Shown: positions 11,425-28,085 of the stretch, piece by piece | How positions within the stretch are numbered: position 1 is the first letter of the stretch | Layout of the letters: every line of letters starts with the position of its first letter | Virus record (IMG/VR): IMGVR_UViG_3300043036_000015 | Location: 1 to 37,951 of that record | Direction: 5' to 3' (one strand) | Length of the DNA: 37,951 bases | Source of the DNA: a virus | Notes under the pieces: generated by a model | Told to the model about the DNA's origin: nothing | Seen by the model: the letters and a program-made list of their open reading frames with translations, nothing else | Database searches by the model: none | Made by a program: the position numbers and the translations under genes

Positions 11425-11646
11425 ATGCCTGACATTAGTATGTGTAACGATTATTCCTGTCCTAAGTTTGACAAGTGCTACCGAGCGCAGGCTAAACCTA
11501 GTGAGTACCGACAAGCATACTTTGCTAGTTCACCTCGTAGTGTAGACGGTTGCGAATACTTTAGCCCTTTGGAAAAAACAAATGAGAATAGTTCTCGACA
11601 TCGAAACAAACCTAGCACACGACAAGATTCACCTAGTCGTGACTAA
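11425..11646 (+). CDS. Cys-rich small protein, unknown function
   Basis: Track ORF 11410..11646. I prefer the ATG at 11425 with a GAGGAGG SD. It overlaps the DNA polymerase start by 65 nt in another frame. Confidence 0.5.
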   Translation: MPDISMCNDYSCPKFDKCYRAQAKPSEYRQAYFASSPRSVDGCEYFSPLEKTNENSSRHRNKPSTRQDSPSRD

Positions 11647-12832
11647 AGACATTGACACTGGAGAAGTACGCACATGGAAAGCAGCAAGCAACCTGCCGGA
11701 GTTTTTAAAGGACGCATCGTTGATAGTCATGCACAACGGCATAAGTTTCGATGCACCAGTATTGAATCGCTTATGGAAGACGAAGATTCGTTCGAGTCAA
11801 GTGTACGATACATTGATAGTAAGCAGGCTTCTCGACCCGAGCCGCGAGAACGGTCACAGCCTCGAAGCATGGGGACAAACTCTAGGCTTTCACAAGATTG
11901 ACTATGCTGCTGTATGGCGGTGGATGATGGACAGGAAGGAAGAGTATGCAGGAGAGTGTTTTGACAGCCCTATTGCTGGTCTTCTTGAGCATTACTGTGT
12001 TAGGGACGTTGAAGTTACTTGTAAGCTGTATCATCGGCTTAACAGTGACTTGGCTGAGAAGCAGTTTAGCCAAGAGAGTGTCGAACTCGAACACAGAGTA
12101 GCAGCAATCATATCAAAGCAAGAACGAAATGGATTCAAACTTGACCAAATCTACGCAACCTGTTTACTTACTGACATCAAGTCAAAAGTGGCAGGAATAT
12201 ATGAGCGAATGCAACAGAGATGGCCTCCTGTCACTCTTGAGCGATTCTCTGACAAAACAGGAAAGAGACTCAAGGACAGCGTGGTTACTTTCAACCCCGG
12301 AAGTAGACAGCAAATTGGGGAACGACTGAAGGAACTCGGATGGAAGCCCAAGGAGTTCACAGAGACAGGTATTCCAAAGGTAGATGAAACTATCTTAGCT
12401 AACATCAAGATTCCAGAAGCTCAGGTTATTGCTGAGTATCTGATGCTACAGAAACGTATCAGTCAGATTGAGTCTTGGATGGAAGCTGTAGGCAAGGATG
12501 GTAGGGTGCATGGTAAGGTCATTACTAACGGTGCTGTTACAGGCCGAATGACCCACAGTAGCCCTAACATGGCTCAGATCCCCAATGCAGGTTCCATCTA
12601 TGGGCCTGAGTGCCGGGAATGCTGGTCAGTTGAGGATGGTAATGTGTTGGTAGGTTGCGATGCTTCAGGTCTGGAGCTTCGTATGTTGGCTCACTATATG
12701 AAGGATGAAGATTATGTCAGAACTGTCTGTGAGGGATCATCTAAAGATGGAACGGATGTTCATACAGTTAACCAAAGAGCAGCAGGACTCTCTTCTAGAG
12801 ATAATGCAAAGACTTTTATCTACGCCTTCCTT
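11582..12832 (+). CDS. Family A DNA polymerase (T7 gp5-like), exon 1
   Basis: 417 codons. Exo I motif LDIETN sits near the N-terminus. The exon ends ...SRDNAKTFIYAFL, in the middle of motif B (O-helix), and a stop codon follows immediately. Confidence 0.9.
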
Positions 12833-12943
12833 TGACTAAATAGAGGCTTTACCTAGGAATAGGTATCGAAAATCCGGTGAACTCAGGGGAAGACCAGAAC
12901 GGTTAATCCTGAGCCAAGCAAGTAAGCTTATTGTAAGTCATTT

Positions 12944-12952
12944 ATGCTATAA
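12944..12952 (+). promoter_or_regulatory. Extended -10 element (TGcTATAAT) inside the intron, upstream of the endonuclease ORF
   Basis: Read directly. There is no good -35. An AAGGAG SD follows at 12969-12974. Confidence 0.4.
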
Positions 12953-12980
12953 TATAGGCTCCGTAACATAAGGAGTAGAT

Positions 12981-13424
12981 ATGACAGCATTAACACAAAC
13001 AGAATTGCAGTTTCGCCATCGTAGGACACTGAAAGGAACTATCTCTAACAAACTAATGTCAGCCAAGAAACGAGCAAGAAACGATAATTTATCTTTCGAG
13101 CTTGATAACGCTTACGTAACTTCTCTCTGGGAACAACAAGAAGGTAAGTGTGCAAAAACAGGTGTTGAGTTAGGACGTATTGGAGATAAGTGGTTATCCC
13201 CTTCCTTGGATCGCATTGATCCTTTACAAGGATACATAAAAGGGAATGTTCAGTGGACTTGTTGGAGATATAATGATGCTAAGAGTAACATGAGTGATGA
13301 TTCGTTTACTTCCATGTGTCTAGCAATCGCTGCTACTTATTTTAAGCAACTTGAAGGTGCAACGACTATCCCGAAAGGGAGTACATCCAAGCGGATGGAA
13401 GCGCCGGACAACCAGTTAGGTTGA
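12981..13424 (+). CDS. Intron-encoded HNH-type (His-Me finger) homing endonuclease (putative)
   Basis: 147-aa ORF with SLDRIDPLQGYIKGNVQWTCWRYNDAK, which resembles the xDRID..GY..xNvq....N..K pattern of many phage proteins annotated as HNH endonucleases. It has a strong SD, and its 3' end overlaps the ribozyme core. Confidence 0.65.
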   Translation: MTALTQTELQFRHRRTLKGTISNKLMSAKKRARNDNLSFELDNAYVTSLWEQQEGKCAKTGVELGRIGDKWLSPSLDRIDPLQGYIKGNVQWTCWRYNDAKSNMSDDSFTSMCLAIAATYFKQLEGATTIPKGSTSKRMEAPDNQLG

Positions 13425-13504
13425 TGATATAGTCTGCTCTACATAGGAATATGTAGCAGTTCGTAAGAACGGACAGAGCCTAGCGAACTCTGTTGAACAT
13501 TAGG

Positions 13505-13966
13505 TATGGTGCGGGAGATGCAAAGATTGGTAGTATTGTGGGGGGCAGTGCAAGAGATGGAACAAAGCTCAAAGCCAAGTTCCTCGCGCAAACACCGTCC
13601 CTCGCTAAACTTCTTGAACGAGTCGGAAAGCAAGCAGCAAAAGGATGGGTTCCCGGACTTGATGGGAGGCGTATTTGGGTTCGATCCGAGCATGCGGCTC
13701 TCAATTCGCTCCTCCAAGGGGCCGGAGCAATCGTGATGAAGAAGGCTCTCGTGATCTTTGATGACAAACGCAAGGCTAACAAATGGCCTGTGAAGTATGT
13801 CGCCAATGTCCACGATGAGGCCCAGCTAGAATGCCCTAAAGATATTGCTGAGGAGGTCGGTAAAGCCTTCAGACAAAGTATCATTGAGGCAGGGGAAGCT
13901 TACAGTTTACGGTGTCCACTAGATGGGGAGTACAAGATTGGTAGAAACTGGAGAGAAACACATTGA
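13505..13966 (+). CDS. Family A DNA polymerase, exon 2
   Basis: It begins YGAGDAKIGSIVGG..., which completes motif B, and contains motif C (NVHDEAQLE). The spliced product is 570 aa. Confidence 0.88.
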   Translation, partial: YGAGDAKIGSIVGGSARDGTKLKAKFLAQTPSLAKLLERVGKQAAKGWVPGLDGRRIWVRSEHAALNSLLQGAGAIVMKKALVIFDDKRKANKWPVKYVANVHDEAQLECPKDIAEEVGKAFRQSIIEAGEAYSLRCPLDGEYKIGRNWRETH

Positions 13967-14001: not shown

Positions 14002-14086
14002 GCGAGTGTGGTGGAATTGGTATACACAGCAGACTTAAAATCTGCCGCCGAAAGGATTGAGGGATCGTGACCCTCCACTCGCACCA
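14002..14086 (+). tRNA. tRNA-Leu (anticodon UAA), type II with long variable arm, encoded CCA
   Basis: Hand-folded. Acceptor GCGAGTG/CACTCGC; 3-bp D stem with GG in the loop; anticodon stem GCAGA/TCTGC with loop CTTAAAA; 13-nt variable region; T stem GAGGG/CCCTC; discriminator A followed by CCA. Confidence 0.85.
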
Positions 14087-24276: not shown

Positions 24277-26850
24277 TTACTCCTGCATTTCTGGTGCTGC
24301 TGTTTGTTCACGTTCAACGATACGGGCCGGAGCAGATGCACCGATCAAAGCTGCAACCGCCCAGCTCGCTGCCAGCTTCTTGCCACTTTGTTTCAGCTTA
24401 TCCACAAAAGCATTACCGCCTGTTTCCATAGCTTTAATCGCATCCGACATATCTTTGACATTCTTAGGATCAGATAAGAATTCCTGAATCTCAGTGTTCT
24501 CAGACTTAACAGATTTATTCTGCAAGAACTTACTCAAAAGAGTAGAGACTTTATAGAATGTACTCTGTACTTGCTGACGAAGTAACGAGGCTGCTCGTGC
24601 AGGATCAGAACCTGTCAACTGTTCAAACTGAGTTGTCTGAGACAAGGACTGGTTAATCTTAGTCATCACGGGATTCTTAGCCAGTCGATCGGATGCTTCC
24701 AAAAGAGCCTTCACGTTCTGGGCGTGATCCTTACCAAACAAGGTATTGATAGCCGCAGCGTTGTCGTCAAAGAAGCCTAACTTGTTAGATGACTTTAAGC
24801 CCAAATCCATCACAACAGCTTTTAAACCACGCTGCAATGTTGGATCAGTACCTGCTGTCAACATCAGTTGCTTCAGCTCTTCAGGGTTACTTAAAGCTCT
24901 ATTTACAAAGCCTTCAAAACCACCTTGCTGACCATAAGCTCGTGACCAGATGTTCTCAATCTTACCAATAGCTGCATTCTTCTGCATGTCCAACAAGCGT
25001 TCACGATTAGCCAGTAAGCCATCCACATTTTCAGACAAGCCTTCAAGCTTTTGACGCAAGCCGGGAACCTGATCAATAGCTTCCTGATTCTTACGCACAA
25101 AAGATTGCAAAGCAGCAGGATTAACAGACATCGTATTAGGATTAACAATACCATTGGTCTGACTGATCTTCATCAAGAAAGCATCCTCAACAATCTGCAC
25201 AGCTTCAGGAGAGTTGTCAGTAGCTGCCAAGATCTGTCGAATAGCTGAAGGCTTACTTGTCAACATAGGGACAGTAGACTCAACAAACCGAGCACGATCA
25301 ACAGAAACAACACCCGCTTCACTGAAGGGGATACCTAACTTTTCAGCATACTGTTTGTCCAAGCCTTTGTAAGAACTAACAAAGTCTTCAGGCAAAGTAG
25401 CCAAAGATTCATCAAACTTATCCTTCAAAGCGTATAACATACGCAACTGATCTTTATCCTGAGTGTCGCCGATAGCTCGGTTAATACCACGCTTAAGAGA
25501 ATCAATATCTGTTACACTCATTGGCTTGAATGTGCCTTCAACTGACTTAACTAAGTTAGGATACTTAGCAGCAAATGCACTACTCACAGTAGCTTTTGTA
25601 GGTGCTAGTACTTTCTTAATAGCTGCGTCCAAAGCAGGAAACTTATTAAAGACATCCTCAGCTTGGCGTTGCTTAGTGAAGTTCCAGAGACTAGCCACTA
25701 CAGGAGAGTCCATTTCGATACCTGACTTAGAAGCCCCATCCAAGACTTCTTTGTACAAAGGCCTGAACTCTTCTCGAATAACAGCTTCACGGGCATTGAG
25801 TAAATTAGTAACACGATTACCAATATCCTCTTTACCTGCTGTAGTCATTAAAGAATCAGAAGTAAGGTCTTGGATACGAGTATTGATTTGACCAACTTGA
25901 CGGTCAATGTTCGCTTGCTTCATCGCGTAAGCAGTCTCACGGCGAGAGTTTTCGTAAGCCAGTTTCTTAGCTTCCACTTCAGCAGTCAAGGCTGCATTAC
26001 GTGGATCACCTGCCAACTGTTTCTGAGCCGCCTTAACAGCCTCAAGTGCATCCTTCTCTTGTTGCTTGATAGCAGCAGTAAACGCTGCATTCTCGCTACG
26101 GGAAGTTTGAGAAGCTAACATGCCTGTAAGTGTAGTGTCTCCTTTGGAGGCAGCAGGCACAGGGAGCTTTACACCTGTAAGCTGTTCAATCTCAGCAGCA
26201 CGGGCAAGATCAGCAGTCAAGTCAGGGTTTGCTTCGATAGCACTACGAAGTCTAGCTTCAGCGCGAGCACCACCTACAACCTCAGCAGCTCTCACGCCTG
26301 AATCAAACAGACCACGACCTGAGGCTTTGTTGACTACTCCTCGGACACCTGCCTCTACAGCGTTCATAGCTGTGTTAGCAGGTAAAGCCAAAGCCAAACC
26401 AGCACCCATTTCAGCAGGGATTCGATATTCTTCGCCAGCCTTCTCCGCGACTGCTTGGCCTACTTCTCCAGCAGCTACTGTAGTACCTGCGCTCAAGGCT
26501 GTCTGCCTAGCTAAGTCTGTCCCTGTTTTAGGGATAAACAAATTAGCAGCAGCTTGACCGTAAGGGGCAAACCGAGTACCCGCTGTAGCTGTCTGAACAC
26601 CTCTTGCTAATAAACCGATACCCGGAATAGCAGCAGCACCAGCTAACGCATTGTTAATCATTCGTTGCTGTGCGTTAGGAGGGGCTTGAGTAGGAGCTAC
26701 GGTAGGGTCACCGCCTGTAGGAATAGCCGAAGGGCCTGTCATAGGCCGTTGAGTAGCACCACCCATGTCGGCAGCAATTTCATCAATCTCTGCTTCTGAC
26801 AATTCCCGCTCTGTACGGATTCTATTACCATTGATGGTGTACGTTGGCAT
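24277..26850 (-). CDS. Large internal virion / ejection-type protein (gp16 position)
   Basis: 857 aa and the largest virion gene. It lies upstream of the lysis genes and after two other A/Q-rich proteins. The call rests on position and composition only. Confidence 0.45.
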   Translation of the reverse strand: MPTYTINGNRIRTERELSEAEIDEIAADMGGATQRPMTGPSAIPTGGDPTVAPTQAPPNAQQRMINNALAGAAAIPGIGLLARGVQTATAGTRFAPYGQAAANLFIPKTGTDLARQTALSAGTTVAAGEVGQAVAEKAGEEYRIPAEMGAGLALALPANTAMNAVEAGVRGVVNKASGRGLFDSGVRAAEVVGGARAEARLRSAIEANPDLTADLARAAEIEQLTGVKLPVPAASKGDTTLTGMLASQTSRSENAAFTAAIKQQEKDALEAVKAAQKQLAGDPRNAALTAEVEAKKLAYENSRRETAYAMKQANIDRQVGQINTRIQDLTSDSLMTTAGKEDIGNRVTNLLNAREAVIREEFRPLYKEVLDGASKSGIEMDSPVVASLWNFTKQRQAEDVFNKFPALDAAIKKVLAPTKATVSSAFAAKYPNLVKSVEGTFKPMSVTDIDSLKRGINRAIGDTQDKDQLRMLYALKDKFDESLATLPEDFVSSYKGLDKQYAEKLGIPFSEAGVVSVDRARFVESTVPMLTSKPSAIRQILAATDNSPEAVQIVEDAFLMKISQTNGIVNPNTMSVNPAALQSFVRKNQEAIDQVPGLRQKLEGLSENVDGLLANRERLLDMQKNAAIGKIENIWSRAYGQQGGFEGFVNRALSNPEELKQLMLTAGTDPTLQRGLKAVVMDLGLKSSNKLGFFDDNAAAINTLFGKDHAQNVKALLEASDRLAKNPVMTKINQSLSQTTQFEQLTGSDPARAASLLRQQVQSTFYKVSTLLSKFLQNKSVKSENTEIQEFLSDPKNVKDMSDAIKAMETGGNAFVDKLKQSGKKLAASWAVAALIGASAPARIVEREQTAAPEMQE

Positions 26851-28085
26851 TAATTATTCTCCACTGTATATTTAACCCCACTACGGGTAGTTTTAGTAGT
26901 TCCTTTAGCAGTACCTGCTGCTTCTTTAGGTCGGCGGCGAAACACTGTTTCAATCTGAGGCTCAGTAAACTGACCACTAACGCGAGCAGTAGCTTGCAGT
27001 TGTTGTTCTTCAATAGAGATACGAGATTCAGCCTTCTTCTGGATAGCTTGAGCCAACTGACGCAACTTAGTTAGTGTATCTACTGTTGGACGACTCTGCG
27101 CTAAACGAGAAATAGTATCTGACACACTACCAACCAAGGAAGGATCAATACCAAAAGCCTCTACGTCATTACGCGACAGTTGGGTTTCTCCTGCTGCTTT
27201 AGCCAAACTACGAGACAGACTAGACACGGCAGCAAAGTTATTACTCTTGATAGCCATGTTAGCTAAATCAATAGCATCATTAGCGGCATCTGCTTGGTCT
27301 TGATAAGGTTTAGTAAGAGCTTGCAAGTCTCGGCGTAACCCCGTCACATCACCTGCTGTTTTAACCCCCGGCAATACCACATCAGTTTTACCTGCTTTCC
27401 TAGAAGCAAGATCACGTCTTTCAACTTCTTTATCAACTTCTGCTGCTTCAGTTTGAGTCAACTTATCGTAAGTCTTGTTGTACTTGGCTTTAGAAATACG
27501 CTCTGTCTCAGCGCCATAGGAAGGCCCTTTGTCAACAGGAGTAACAGGAAGCAAGGCAGTTAATTCATCCTCTAACAGTTTAGTTGTTTGAGTGTCTCCT
27601 GCTGCTTTATAGGCAGGAATAGCTGCTTTAATCGCTGCAATGCGCTGTGCTTTAGCAATATCAGCAGGAGTAGAGGCAGCTTTCTGCTCGGCAGTATTCT
27701 TAGTGATCTCAGATTCAGTCTTACGGGCGGCGAGTGCAGCAGCTTCTAAAGTTTGAGATTTAGCATAAGCTTCCTGAGCACCTTGAATATCGCCTGCCTG
27801 CATTAACTGAGAACCAAGATCGCTCCAGCCCTTAGCATTAGTAGGTTGAGCTTGTTGTAATAACGATTGACGTTGTGTGATTCGTTGTAACTCAGGATCT
27901 TGAGCACCGAGCATACCGCCGATAGCACCGCCAAGCCTGTTAGCGCCTGAGTAAATACCTGCGGTAGCACGTTGGAAAGGATCTAACTGAGCATACTGCA
28001 AAGCCTGTTGCTGCAAAGCTGCATCACGCCGTGCTTGAAGGGATTCTGGAGTGATCCCAAATAAACTATTAACTACTTCAGCCAT
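26850..28085 (-). CDS. Internal virion protein, coiled-coil rich (gp15 position)
   Basis: 411 aa with A/Q/E/K-rich helical composition. Its stop overlaps the next ATG. Confidence 0.45.
   Translation of the reverse strand: MAEVVNSLFGITPESLQARRDAALQQQALQYAQLDPFQRATAGIYSGANRLGGAIGGMLGAQDPELQRITQRQSLLQQAQPTNAKGWSDLGSQLMQAGDIQGAQEAYAKSQTLEAAALAARKTESEITKNTAEQKAASTPADIAKAQRIAAIKAAIPAYKAAGDTQTTKLLEDELTALLPVTPVDKGPSYGAETERISKAKYNKTYDKLTQTEAAEVDKEVERRDLASRKAGKTDVVLPGVKTAGDVTGLRRDLQALTKPYQDQADAANDAIDLANMAIKSNNFAAVSSLSRSLAKAAGETQLSRNDVEAFGIDPSLVGSVSDTISRLAQSRPTVDTLTKLRQLAQAIQKKAESRISIEEQQLQATARVSGQFTEPQIETVFRRRPKEAAGTAKGTTKTTRSGVKYTVENN

Follow-up and report, generated by a model that had tools for sequence, protein, structure and literature searches.

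A mobile IA2-type group I intron, probably still homing, in the O helix of a phage family A DNA polymerase gene

The viral DNA analyzed here, a stretch of 37,951 nucleotides (nt) corresponding to positions 1 to 37,951 of IMG/VR record IMGVR_UViG_3300043036_000015 (hereafter the window), carries a family A DNA polymerase gene in two pieces. We conclude, with a probability of about 0.9, that the intervening 672 nt (positions 12833–13504, + strand) represent a mobile IA2-type group I intron, inserted in the O helix of the polymerase at the position of T7 gp5 L529/Y530. An original prediction, made from the letters of the window, had placed at these positions a subgroup IA-like group I intron carrying an HNH-type endonuclease. 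The case for an intron combines a full-length covariance-model match, covariation across related introns, uninterrupted polymerase alleles in close relatives, and homologous introns without an open reading frame (ORF) at the same site. The encoded protein resembles the histidine-less nuclease PacI more closely than a canonical HNH enzyme.

The interrupted polymerase gene and its intronless alleles

The ORF at 11582–12835 closes with ...RDNAKTFIYAFL and a TGA at 12833–12835, and a family A polymerase frame reopens at 13505 (YGAGDAKIG...) and runs to 13966. Both the coordinates and the sequences of this split agree with the original prediction. The gene is laid out as follows:

11582–12832, + strand: DNA polymerase exon 1, 417 codons, with the 3'-5' exonuclease domain and the polymerase up to ...RDNAKTFIYAFL (ORF list, Pfam, T7 gp5 alignment to L529)
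12833–13504, + strand: IA2-type group I intron, 672 nt, as supported by RF00028, its absence from 66 contiguous intronless alleles, and covariation
13504, + strand: terminal intron G (omega G), predicted 3' splice site (from sequence, with the junction set by intronless alleles)
13505–13966, + strand: DNA polymerase exon 2, 153 codons plus stop, from YGAGDAKIG... to the C terminus (Pfam, T7 gp5 alignment from Y530)

The two pieces match consecutive parts of the Pfam DNA_pol_A profile, exon 1 at profile positions 26–215 (3.7e-25, along with a DNA_pol_A_exo1 match) and exon 2 at 219–381 (1.1e-18), so that only the junction is missing from the polymerase. Joining 12832 to 13505 restores the frame and yields a 570-amino-acid (aa), ~64-kDa polymerase collinear with T7 gp5, with the HTVC104P polymerase and with 66 intronless alleles. 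The MAFFT alignment places the junction between L529 and Y530 of T7 gp5, in the O helix of motif B, a region involved in binding the incoming nucleotide, and both T7 gp5 and the HTVC104P polymerase align across it without gaps, which is the outcome sought when alignment of the spliced product to family A polymerases was originally proposed as a check. The T7 motif B sequence given in the original prediction proved exact (RDNAKTFIYGFLYGAGDEKIG, starting at R518 of gp5). With a vertical bar marking the splice point, the predicted ligated-exon junction reads ...GCCUUCCUU|UAUGGUGCG... (codons ...UUC CUU | UAU GGU...). The intron boundaries are ambiguous by one T at the DNA level, and 12832|13505 was chosen because group I rules place a U before the 5' splice site and a G before the 3' splice site; U12832 is then the last exon base and G13504 the last intron base. 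Among cultured phages, the nearest polymerases are those of Pelagibacter podoviruses (48% identity).

To compare alleles, we searched IMG/VR with the spliced protein and took the 80 closest polymerase loci. An uninterrupted K-T-F-I-Y-A-F-L/I-Y-G was found in 66 of these 80 loci, while most of the other 14 either break off before reaching the site or show an altered motif in a gene of intronless length. L077 and L078, which are the nearest relatives, share 96% protein identity with the window and read ...GCC TTC CTC TAT GGC... without interruption, the L077-type allele being ...GCCTTCCTC|TATGGCGCAGG... around the junction. Within the same 80 loci, the 672-nt insert occurs only in L119, which is the same contig as L007. 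The last exon codon is CUU in both intron-bearing alleles, and CUC, CUA or UUA in the closest intronless ones. Between the window and L007, the whole intron is 94.5% identical at the nucleotide level and the polymerase exons 84%, with a synonymous divergence (dS) of 0.66–0.84 and a ratio of non-synonymous to synonymous divergence (dN/dS) of 0.07–0.14 in the exons. Since the closest polymerase relatives of the window lack the intron, the history of the intron does not follow that of its host gene.

Because the source is a metagenomic contig read from sequence alone, we also considered a dead relic intron within a polymerase pseudogene, on a defective or misassembled contig. However, both exons are under purifying selection relative to L007, the same protein is recorded on six contigs, a diverged copy of the same arrangement is present on L007/L119, and every core helix (see below) is intact and matches the family consensus. 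This makes a relic the least probable of the alternatives to a functional intron, and we give it almost no weight.

The last ~200 nt of exon 1 (~12630–12832, nt 1050–1250 of the spliced polymerase) hardly differ at the nucleotide level among all close relatives, whether or not they carry the intron, whereas dS is ~0.8 over the remainder of the gene. Among the possible causes are recurrent homing with later loss of the intron, a sweep by recombination, and constraint acting on the nucleotide sequence. In the comparison of the window with L007, the final 150 nt of exon 1 have a dS of 0.06, versus 0.79 elsewhere; a co-conversion tract was considered for this segment and rejected, as five intronless relatives are equally conserved there.

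Ribozyme core and its relatives

The Rfam group I intron model RF00028 aligns to the insert over its full length (model 1–253, window 12807–13456) with a score of 45.2 bits and an E-value of 3.3e-10 locally and 1.6e-8 for the whole window. The covariance-model scan that had been suggested as a check thus returned a full-length match, under the cut-off of 50 bits. The helices and splice sites of the ribozyme are as follows, all on the + strand:

12829–12846, +: P1, CCUU|UG (12829–12834) with UAGAGG (12841–12846); the U12832.G12843 pair is the predicted 5' splice site
12840–12842, +: candidate P10 partner AUA for the UAU of exon 2 (13505–13507), suggested by complementarity
12851–12864, +: P2 hairpin ACCUA-GGAA-UAGGU (sequence, minimum free energy fold)
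12873–12879, +: P3 5' strand UCCGGUG, pairing with 13402–13408; 7 base pairs (bp), 99.6% of alignment cells paired, double changes in 5/7
12883–12912, +: P4 (12883–88/12907–12) enclosing P5 (12893–95/12901–03); P4 100% paired with 2 covarying pairs, P5 3/3 covarying
12913–12923, +: P6 5' strand (12913–15, with 13356–58) and P6a 5' strand (12919–23, with 13349–53); P6 invariant, P6a with double changes in 5/5
13349–13358, +: P6a 3' strand (13349–53) and P6 3' strand (13356–58) (covariation alignment)
13364–13368, +: P7 5' strand GACUA, pairing with 13430–13434 in a pseudoknot with P3; invariant in 39 relatives, on the RF00028 P7 consensus
13369–13397, +: P7.1 (UCCC-GAAA-GGGA, 13369–80), GUA (13381–83) and P7.2 (13384–88/13393–97), an IA2 hallmark; P7.2 covaries
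13402–13408, +: P3 3' strand CGCCGGA (covariation alignment)
13409–13423, +: P8 hairpin CAACC-AGUUA-GGUUG; double changes in 5/5, 92% paired
13430–13434, +: P7 3' strand UAGUC (RF00028 and covariation alignments)
13439–13493, +: P9 (13439–45/13450–56), P9.1 (13459–62/13467–70) and P9.2 (13473–78/13488–93); all covary, 81–97% of cells paired

The helices listed in the original prediction (P1, P2, P3, P7, P7.1, P7.2, P8 and P9) are all complementary as drawn, with P3 extending to 7 bp. We evaluated these together with P4, P5, P6, P6a, P9.1 and P9.2, P7 being written as a pseudoknot, on a structure-blind MAFFT alignment of 39 non-redundant cores from which long P6a inserts were trimmed. Standard pairs filled 94.9% of the 2332 cells, versus 73.5% in column shuffles and 32–42% when the 3' partners were slid. 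Double changes were found in 40 of the 60 pairs, and none of 500 shuffles reached any of the observed measures. P3, P5, P6a, P7.2, P8, P9, P9.1 and P9.2 covary, as does P4 in part. The minimum free energy fold of the ORF-deleted intron (z = -4.6) recovered P2, P3, P4, P5, P6a, P7.1, P7.2 and P9.1; at the place of P2, relatives have other stems with GNRA-type loops.

At the 5' splice site, a U.G wobble is present at all ten homology-defined splice sites, spanning five exon contexts, and the guide sequence tracks the exon (GAGG for CCUU, GGAU for AUCU, GGUU for AACU, GCGCA for UGCGU). The P1 placed by the RF00028 alignment itself (12811–19 with 12840–48 over a 16-nt insertion) was rejected, as the splice-site U is not in a U.G pair there. 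The subgroup could also be refined: IA2 introns are recognized by a P7.1 and a P7.2 joined by G-U-A (PMC3428280), which the window has at 13369–80, 13381–83 and 13384–97, and this arrangement together with an ORF in P6a sharpens the earlier "IA-like" assignment to IA2-type.

Homologous introns are widespread. The 3' core is 80–85% identical to unannotated inserts in several GenBank phages (megablast), and a 28-nt word covering J6/7, P7 and P7.1 (window 13356–13383) occurs exactly in 70 IMG/VR stretches (L005–L074), in many different genes. Nearly all 70 copies are preceded by the P4'-P6 word AATCCTGAGCCAAG, located either 14–55 nt away, in ORF-less introns, or 365–556 nt away, where an ORF lies in P6a. 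ORF-less homologues score 69.7–94.4 bits against RF00028, and the one that occupies exactly this FL|YG position, in Ralstonia phage BOESR1, reaches 91.4 bits. At least four unrelated endonuclease types occupy P6a on this one intron core, including I-HmuI-like HNH, endonuclease VII-type and other HNH types. In some members the ORF is found in P8 or P9 instead (L015, L032, L055, L064, L065, L074, L069, L049), and L030 carries two introns ~1.9 kb apart. The window yielded no further RF00028 match at E <= 0.01. A second intron hidden in the short large terminase subunit (TerL) ORF (419 aa) was also considered and rejected: no extra RF00028 match was found at this threshold, and a small-terminase-like ORF abuts TerL.

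An alternative in which no RNA splicing takes place would be a truly split polymerase ("fractured gene"), i.e., a free-standing endonuclease cassette lying between two genes whose products assemble. Essential phage genes split by endonuclease inserts do exist, as in the Aeromonas phage nrdA example (PMC3045599); the split genes of phages BOESR1, Valrath and Drael01 are deposited in GenBank as two coding sequences (CDS), and the second polymerase frame can open at a TTG at 13493. However, no Shine-Dalgarno sequence precedes 13493–13505, a complete, covariation-supported ribozyme flanks the ORF, and the break separates two neighboring conserved residues of the O helix and has the canonical U and G in place. 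In addition, ORF-less inserts of ~200 nt split the same site, so that the endonuclease gene is not the divider. We therefore regard a fractured gene as highly improbable, and the interpretation of the insert as an IA2-type group I intron in motif B is supported by the covariance match, the covariation, the intronless alleles, and the ORF-less introns at the same site.

The intron-encoded protein and the case for homing

The intron carries one ORF, with the following associated features:

12945–12953, + strand: putative extended -10-like element TGCTATAAT upstream of the ORF; present in the close relative L007, absent in L068, not called in the promoter scan
12970–12975, + strand: Shine-Dalgarno sequence AAGGAG, 5 nt before the ORF ATG; L068 has AGGAGA at the same place
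12981–13424, + strand: intron ORF, 147 aa, putative homing endonuclease of the PacI-like His-Me finger type (HNH superfamily) (PHROG 3322, PacI by profile and Foldseek, dN/dS)

In every ORF-bearing relative found through P6a, the ORF lies inside the P6a loop. In the window, ORF codons ~123–147 read through P6a', P6', J6/7, P7, P7.1, P7.2 and P3' into P8, ending with a TGA at 13422–24. An overlap with the ribozyme core had been noted from the start, and its extent was slightly underestimated (~25 codons, 13349–13424, rather than ~20). Over this core the window and L007 show no codon differences, the last 23 ORF residues are predicted to be disordered (AlphaFold2), the diverged ORF homologue in L068 ends before P6a', and the same ...EGATTIPKGS... 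tail is found on the unrelated endonucleases of other members. The disorder, the L068 stop and the sharing of the tail by unrelated endonucleases mark the tail as ribozyme sequence read as protein and not a functional domain. The ORF had also been credited with its own extended -10 and Shine-Dalgarno elements. Both sequences are present, and the Shine-Dalgarno sequence is a good one of a kind also kept in L068, but a promoter is not borne out, as the sigma-70 scan made no call (there is no -35) and the TGnTATAAT is missing in L068. An ORF-specific promoter was thus set aside, the -10-like site being a resemblance in sequence.

The ORF product matched PHROG 3322 ("endonuclease") at 1.4e-24, and families named "endonuclease", "endonuclease VII" and "HNH endonuclease" at 1.4e-24 to 5e-11. 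No Pfam or NCBIfam match was obtained for the ORF and two homologues, even at E <= 10, and a single-sequence search of the ORF against Protein Data Bank (PDB) sequences returned nothing. A large protein collection contained 67 ORF homologues, none informatively named and none with a Pfam domain; one of them, a 130-aa metagenome protein (P0040), is named "GH43 family beta-xylosidase" in one source and is almost certainly mislabeled. Homologues are also present in 152 GenBank phage records, and those at 33–40% identity in human-fecal crAss-like phages and N4-like phages (H69, H70, H82–H85) are usually labeled "endonuclease" or "hypothetical protein".

Conservation was counted over 36 ORF homologues, down to 29% identity. 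C57, D77, R78, G84, Y85 and N89 are invariant, and S75, I79, D80, V90, N98 and K101 near-invariant (N98 and K101 at least 90%). The spacing is HNH-like, and where the general-base His would stand there is an invariant Arg (D77-R78). When the family profile was compared to solved structures, PacI was the one match below E 0.01 (E 0.002), the alignment spanning ...VDRSDSFEGYSPQN...CNRIKSN; D77, Y85, N89, N98 and K101 of the ORF fall on the PacI stretch V-D-R-S-D-S-F-E-G-Y-S-P-Q-N...C-N-R-I-K-S-N. The AlphaFold2 model (predicted local distance difference test 86.5) has strands at 74–78 and 90–94 followed by a helix at 95–101, i.e., a beta-beta-alpha-metal fold, and PacI was again its best Foldseek match (E 4.4e-3, probability 1.00, TM-score 0.50), ahead of Cas9 HNH domains, Gme HNH, T4 endonuclease VII and McrA (all E > 1e-3).

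According to reviews, PacI is a His-Me finger nuclease without histidine in which a loop Tyr acts as the base and Asp and Asn bind the metal (group 20 of PMC5714182). The DR...GY...N...N motif of this PacI-like group is present in the ORF, and Y85 would be the counterpart of the PacI catalytic Tyr. Like PacI (PDB 3LDY/3M7K), the ORF has DR-x-D...GY...N...N-x-x-K-S-N, an Arg at the general-base position otherwise held by His, and a Tyr in the inter-strand loop. PacI, however, is a restriction enzyme from bacteria that forms a homodimer, has two Cys4 zinc sites and targets an 8-bp palindrome, whereas the ORF protein has a single invariant Cys, a helical N-terminal domain and an intron location, and the two share 17% identity and a TM-score of 0.5. 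The "HNH-type" label originally given to this protein therefore holds at the level of the HNH/His-Me superfamily, based on PHROG matches and fold, and does not hold for canonical HNH enzymes, as Arg replaces His and PacI is closest; the protein resembles a PacI-like variant of the His-Me finger.

The ORF is under purifying selection: between the window and L007, codons 1–122 are 91.8% identical at the nucleotide level, with a dS of 0.44 and a dN/dS of 0.03 (26 synonymous and 4 non-synonymous sites). Along with this low dN/dS, two further marks of a homing element were found, namely an intron restricted to one contig among the 80 closest polymerase loci and an intron more similar than its exons. 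The selection on the ORF, the patchiness of the intron, the variety of endonuclease cassettes, and the recurrence of ORF homologues in other split genes support an active homing element, with predicted cleavage and transfer.

The sequences show the anatomy of the insert, the conserved and covarying RNA structure, the presence/absence polymorphism and the selection on the ORF; splicing, endonuclease activity and homing are inferred, by the following mechanism. The precursor messenger RNA would fold into a P1–P10 ribozyme, in which an external guanosine would attack after U12832, the partner of G12843 in a P1 U.G wobble. In a second attack, after G13504, the released exon would join ...UUC CUU to UAU GGU..., and the spliced messenger RNA would encode the single 570-aa polymerase. 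The nuclease encoded in the P6a loop is most likely a homing endonuclease, which would cut or nick the intronless polymerase alleles of a co-infecting relative, and repair of the cut allele would copy the intron in.

Several observations weigh against this reading and were considered together. The RF00028 score of the window lies below the curated gathering score, because the alignment skips a 434-nt ORF insertion in P6; a default Rfam gathering scan of the window accordingly missed the intron and reported only a transfer RNA (tRNA), the intron match appearing only under E-value thresholds. P6, P7 and P7.1 are invariant, so that covariation neither supports nor contradicts them, and the P7 5' strand and P7.1 are also part of the search word. 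At 6 bp, the P1 of the window is not significant by itself, being matched by 15% of randomly chosen U positions. The low dS at the end of exon 1 is common to intronless alleles and thus provides no evidence of co-conversion. For the ORF, the canonical catalytic His of HNH nucleases is absent across the 36 homologues, and the resemblance to PacI is borderline (E 2e-3 and 4e-3, TM-score 0.50).

These last points bear on a further alternative, in which the intron splices but its ORF is no longer a homing endonuclease, being instead an inactive remnant, an RNA maturase, a DNA-binding factor or a nuclease with another role. Consistent with this alternative are the Arg at the place of the catalytic His, the lack of Pfam and NCBIfam matches, the marginal similarity to PacI, and the non-conservation of the PacI zinc-binding cysteines in the ORF family, in which C57 is the only invariant Cys. 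The homing-cycle model also predicts that endonucleases decay after fixation. However, the infrequent and scattered occurrence of the intron in close relatives means that it is not fixed, and the ORF has a dN/dS of 0.03 between copies that differ at 26 synonymous sites. Even in homologues with as little as 29% identity, D77, Y85, N89 and N98 vary hardly or not at all, and these residues align with the DR...GY...N...N of PacI, and ORF homologues recur inside other split genes. Overall, a loss or change of function of the ORF appears unlikely, albeit less so than a fractured or relic gene, and we retain an active homing endonuclease as the preferred interpretation.

Known polymerase introns and the surrounding contig

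Group I introns in phage polymerase genes were already known, as the original prediction stated. IA2 introns with endonuclease ORFs in P6a have been described in phage family A polymerase genes since SPO1, and splicing was shown for PhiI, W31 and Pf-WMP3; in Escherichia coli Pol I numbering, the sites listed are 881 (PhiI, W31), 674 (Pf-WMP3, SPO1, SP82, Bastille) and 676 (phiL7) (PMC3428280). The PhiI, W31 and Pf-WMP3 introns share with the window a podovirus family A polymerase split at a conserved catalytic motif, the IA2 arrangement P7.1-GUA-P7.2, an ORF running from P6a into P7, P7.1 and P7.2, and a stop codon directly after exon 1, and the Pf-WMP3 intron has the same length as that of the window (672 nt). 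They differ in that their endonucleases are canonical HNH enzymes, whereas the window ORF is histidine-less and PacI-like, and in that their splicing and cleavage were shown experimentally, whereas the window intron is known from its sequence. The insertion site differs as well, since the window intron lies just before the Tyr aligned with T7 Y530, which is not among positions 674, 676 and 881. We take this Tyr to be Y766 in Pol I numbering.

Two phages provide closer parallels. In Escherichia phage KarlSchell_Bas89 (PQ850613), the pol I annotation joins two pieces that flank an "endonuclease" (Bas89_0048) with 35% identity to the window ORF. The O-helix motif (RDNAKTFIYAFN-Y) is interrupted here as it is in the window, and the insert shows a U.G pair in P1 and a related P7, P7.1 and P9.1–P9.2 core. 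The Bas89 splice point, however, leaves the first base of the Tyr codon in exon 1 and is thereby shifted 1 nt in the 3' direction, and the phage (~77 kb) has a distant polymerase. The P4'-P6 word AATCCTGAGCCAAG was not found in the Bas89 intron. Ralstonia phage BOESR1 (OR367448, L002) has an insert at the same site (FIYGFL|YGAGD), with a homologous core and the exact 28-nt J6/7-P7-P7.1 word, but this insert is ORF-less (P6a is a 4-bp hairpin), has a different P9 region, and belongs to an RNA polymerase-encoding Autographiviridae phage. The arrangement in the window is hence not new in kind, since the Bas89 record already describes pol I as spliced, 1 nt away, around a homologous endonuclease. 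A full-text literature search for "group I intron" with "O-helix" returned no paper.

The O-helix stretch of phage polA genes appears as an insertion hot spot, with splice points at TFI-Y(1)|, YA-L(1)|, FL|YG and FN-Y(1)| within ~11 nt (loci L023, L031/L035/L063, L053, L024, L036, L068, L002 and L157, with Bas89 at FN-Y(1)|); IMG/VR shows three further splice points within ~11 nt. Endonuclease VII-type ORFs are found at TFI-Y(1)|, at YA-L(1)| and, in L036, at FL|YG, and PacI-like ORFs at FL|YG (window, L007, L068) and at FN-Y(1)| in Bas89. An ORF homologue also lies between two "RNA polymerase" CDS in Drael01, which carries the same intron core. Taken jointly, we see about even odds for a broader view with two parts. 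In the first, the window ORF would belong to an uncharacterized clade of homing endonucleases built on a PacI-type histidine-less His-Me finger (invariant Asp-Arg, loop Tyr, no zinc sites, no Pfam model) and spread through phage introns in polymerase, RNA polymerase and other genes. In the second, the O helix would be a multi-site hot spot, with at least four splice points in ~11 nt and interchangeable cassettes on one ribozyme chassis.

The main value of this intron lies in annotation. If the splice is overlooked, the polymerase is called as two fragments, as the original prediction anticipated, plus a hypothetical protein; the error is also seen in GenBank, where two CDS are annotated for the polymerase in BOESR1 and Valrath (PV037726, L003) and for the RNA polymerase in Drael01 (PP179320, L158); in Valrath, a spurious "hypothetical protein" is also called inside the ribozyme. 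The two polymerase halves should instead be annotated as one spliced gene. Genes of this kind would be lost or cut short in marker surveys based on polA motif B, which includes the residue corresponding to Pol I 762. The intron also extends the polymerase insertion sites of the literature (674, 676 and 881) by one in the O helix, and the PacI-like nuclease clade could yield new rare-cutting or nicking specificities, while the understanding of how group I introns work is unchanged.

Beyond the polymerase, the contig encodes a portal, a terminase, a primase-helicase, a ribonucleotide reductase and tail-fiber proteins. The lineage had been described as lacking an RNA polymerase, and no single-subunit RNA polymerase was indeed found among the ten largest ORFs screened; as the window is one contig and perhaps not a whole genome, this description is plausible for the lineage. 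The other features recorded in the window are:

14002–14086, + strand: tRNA-Leu (anticodon UAA), 36 nt after the polymerase stop codon
24277–26850, - strand: ORF of 857 aa, structural module, no PHROG match at E <= 1e-5
26850–28085, - strand: ORF of 411 aa, structural module, no PHROG match at E <= 1e-5

The tRNA-Leu is 88–94% identical to tRNA-Leu genes of unrelated ~98-kb Pseudomonas phages, and the relative L119 has a predicted tRNA at the equivalent position.

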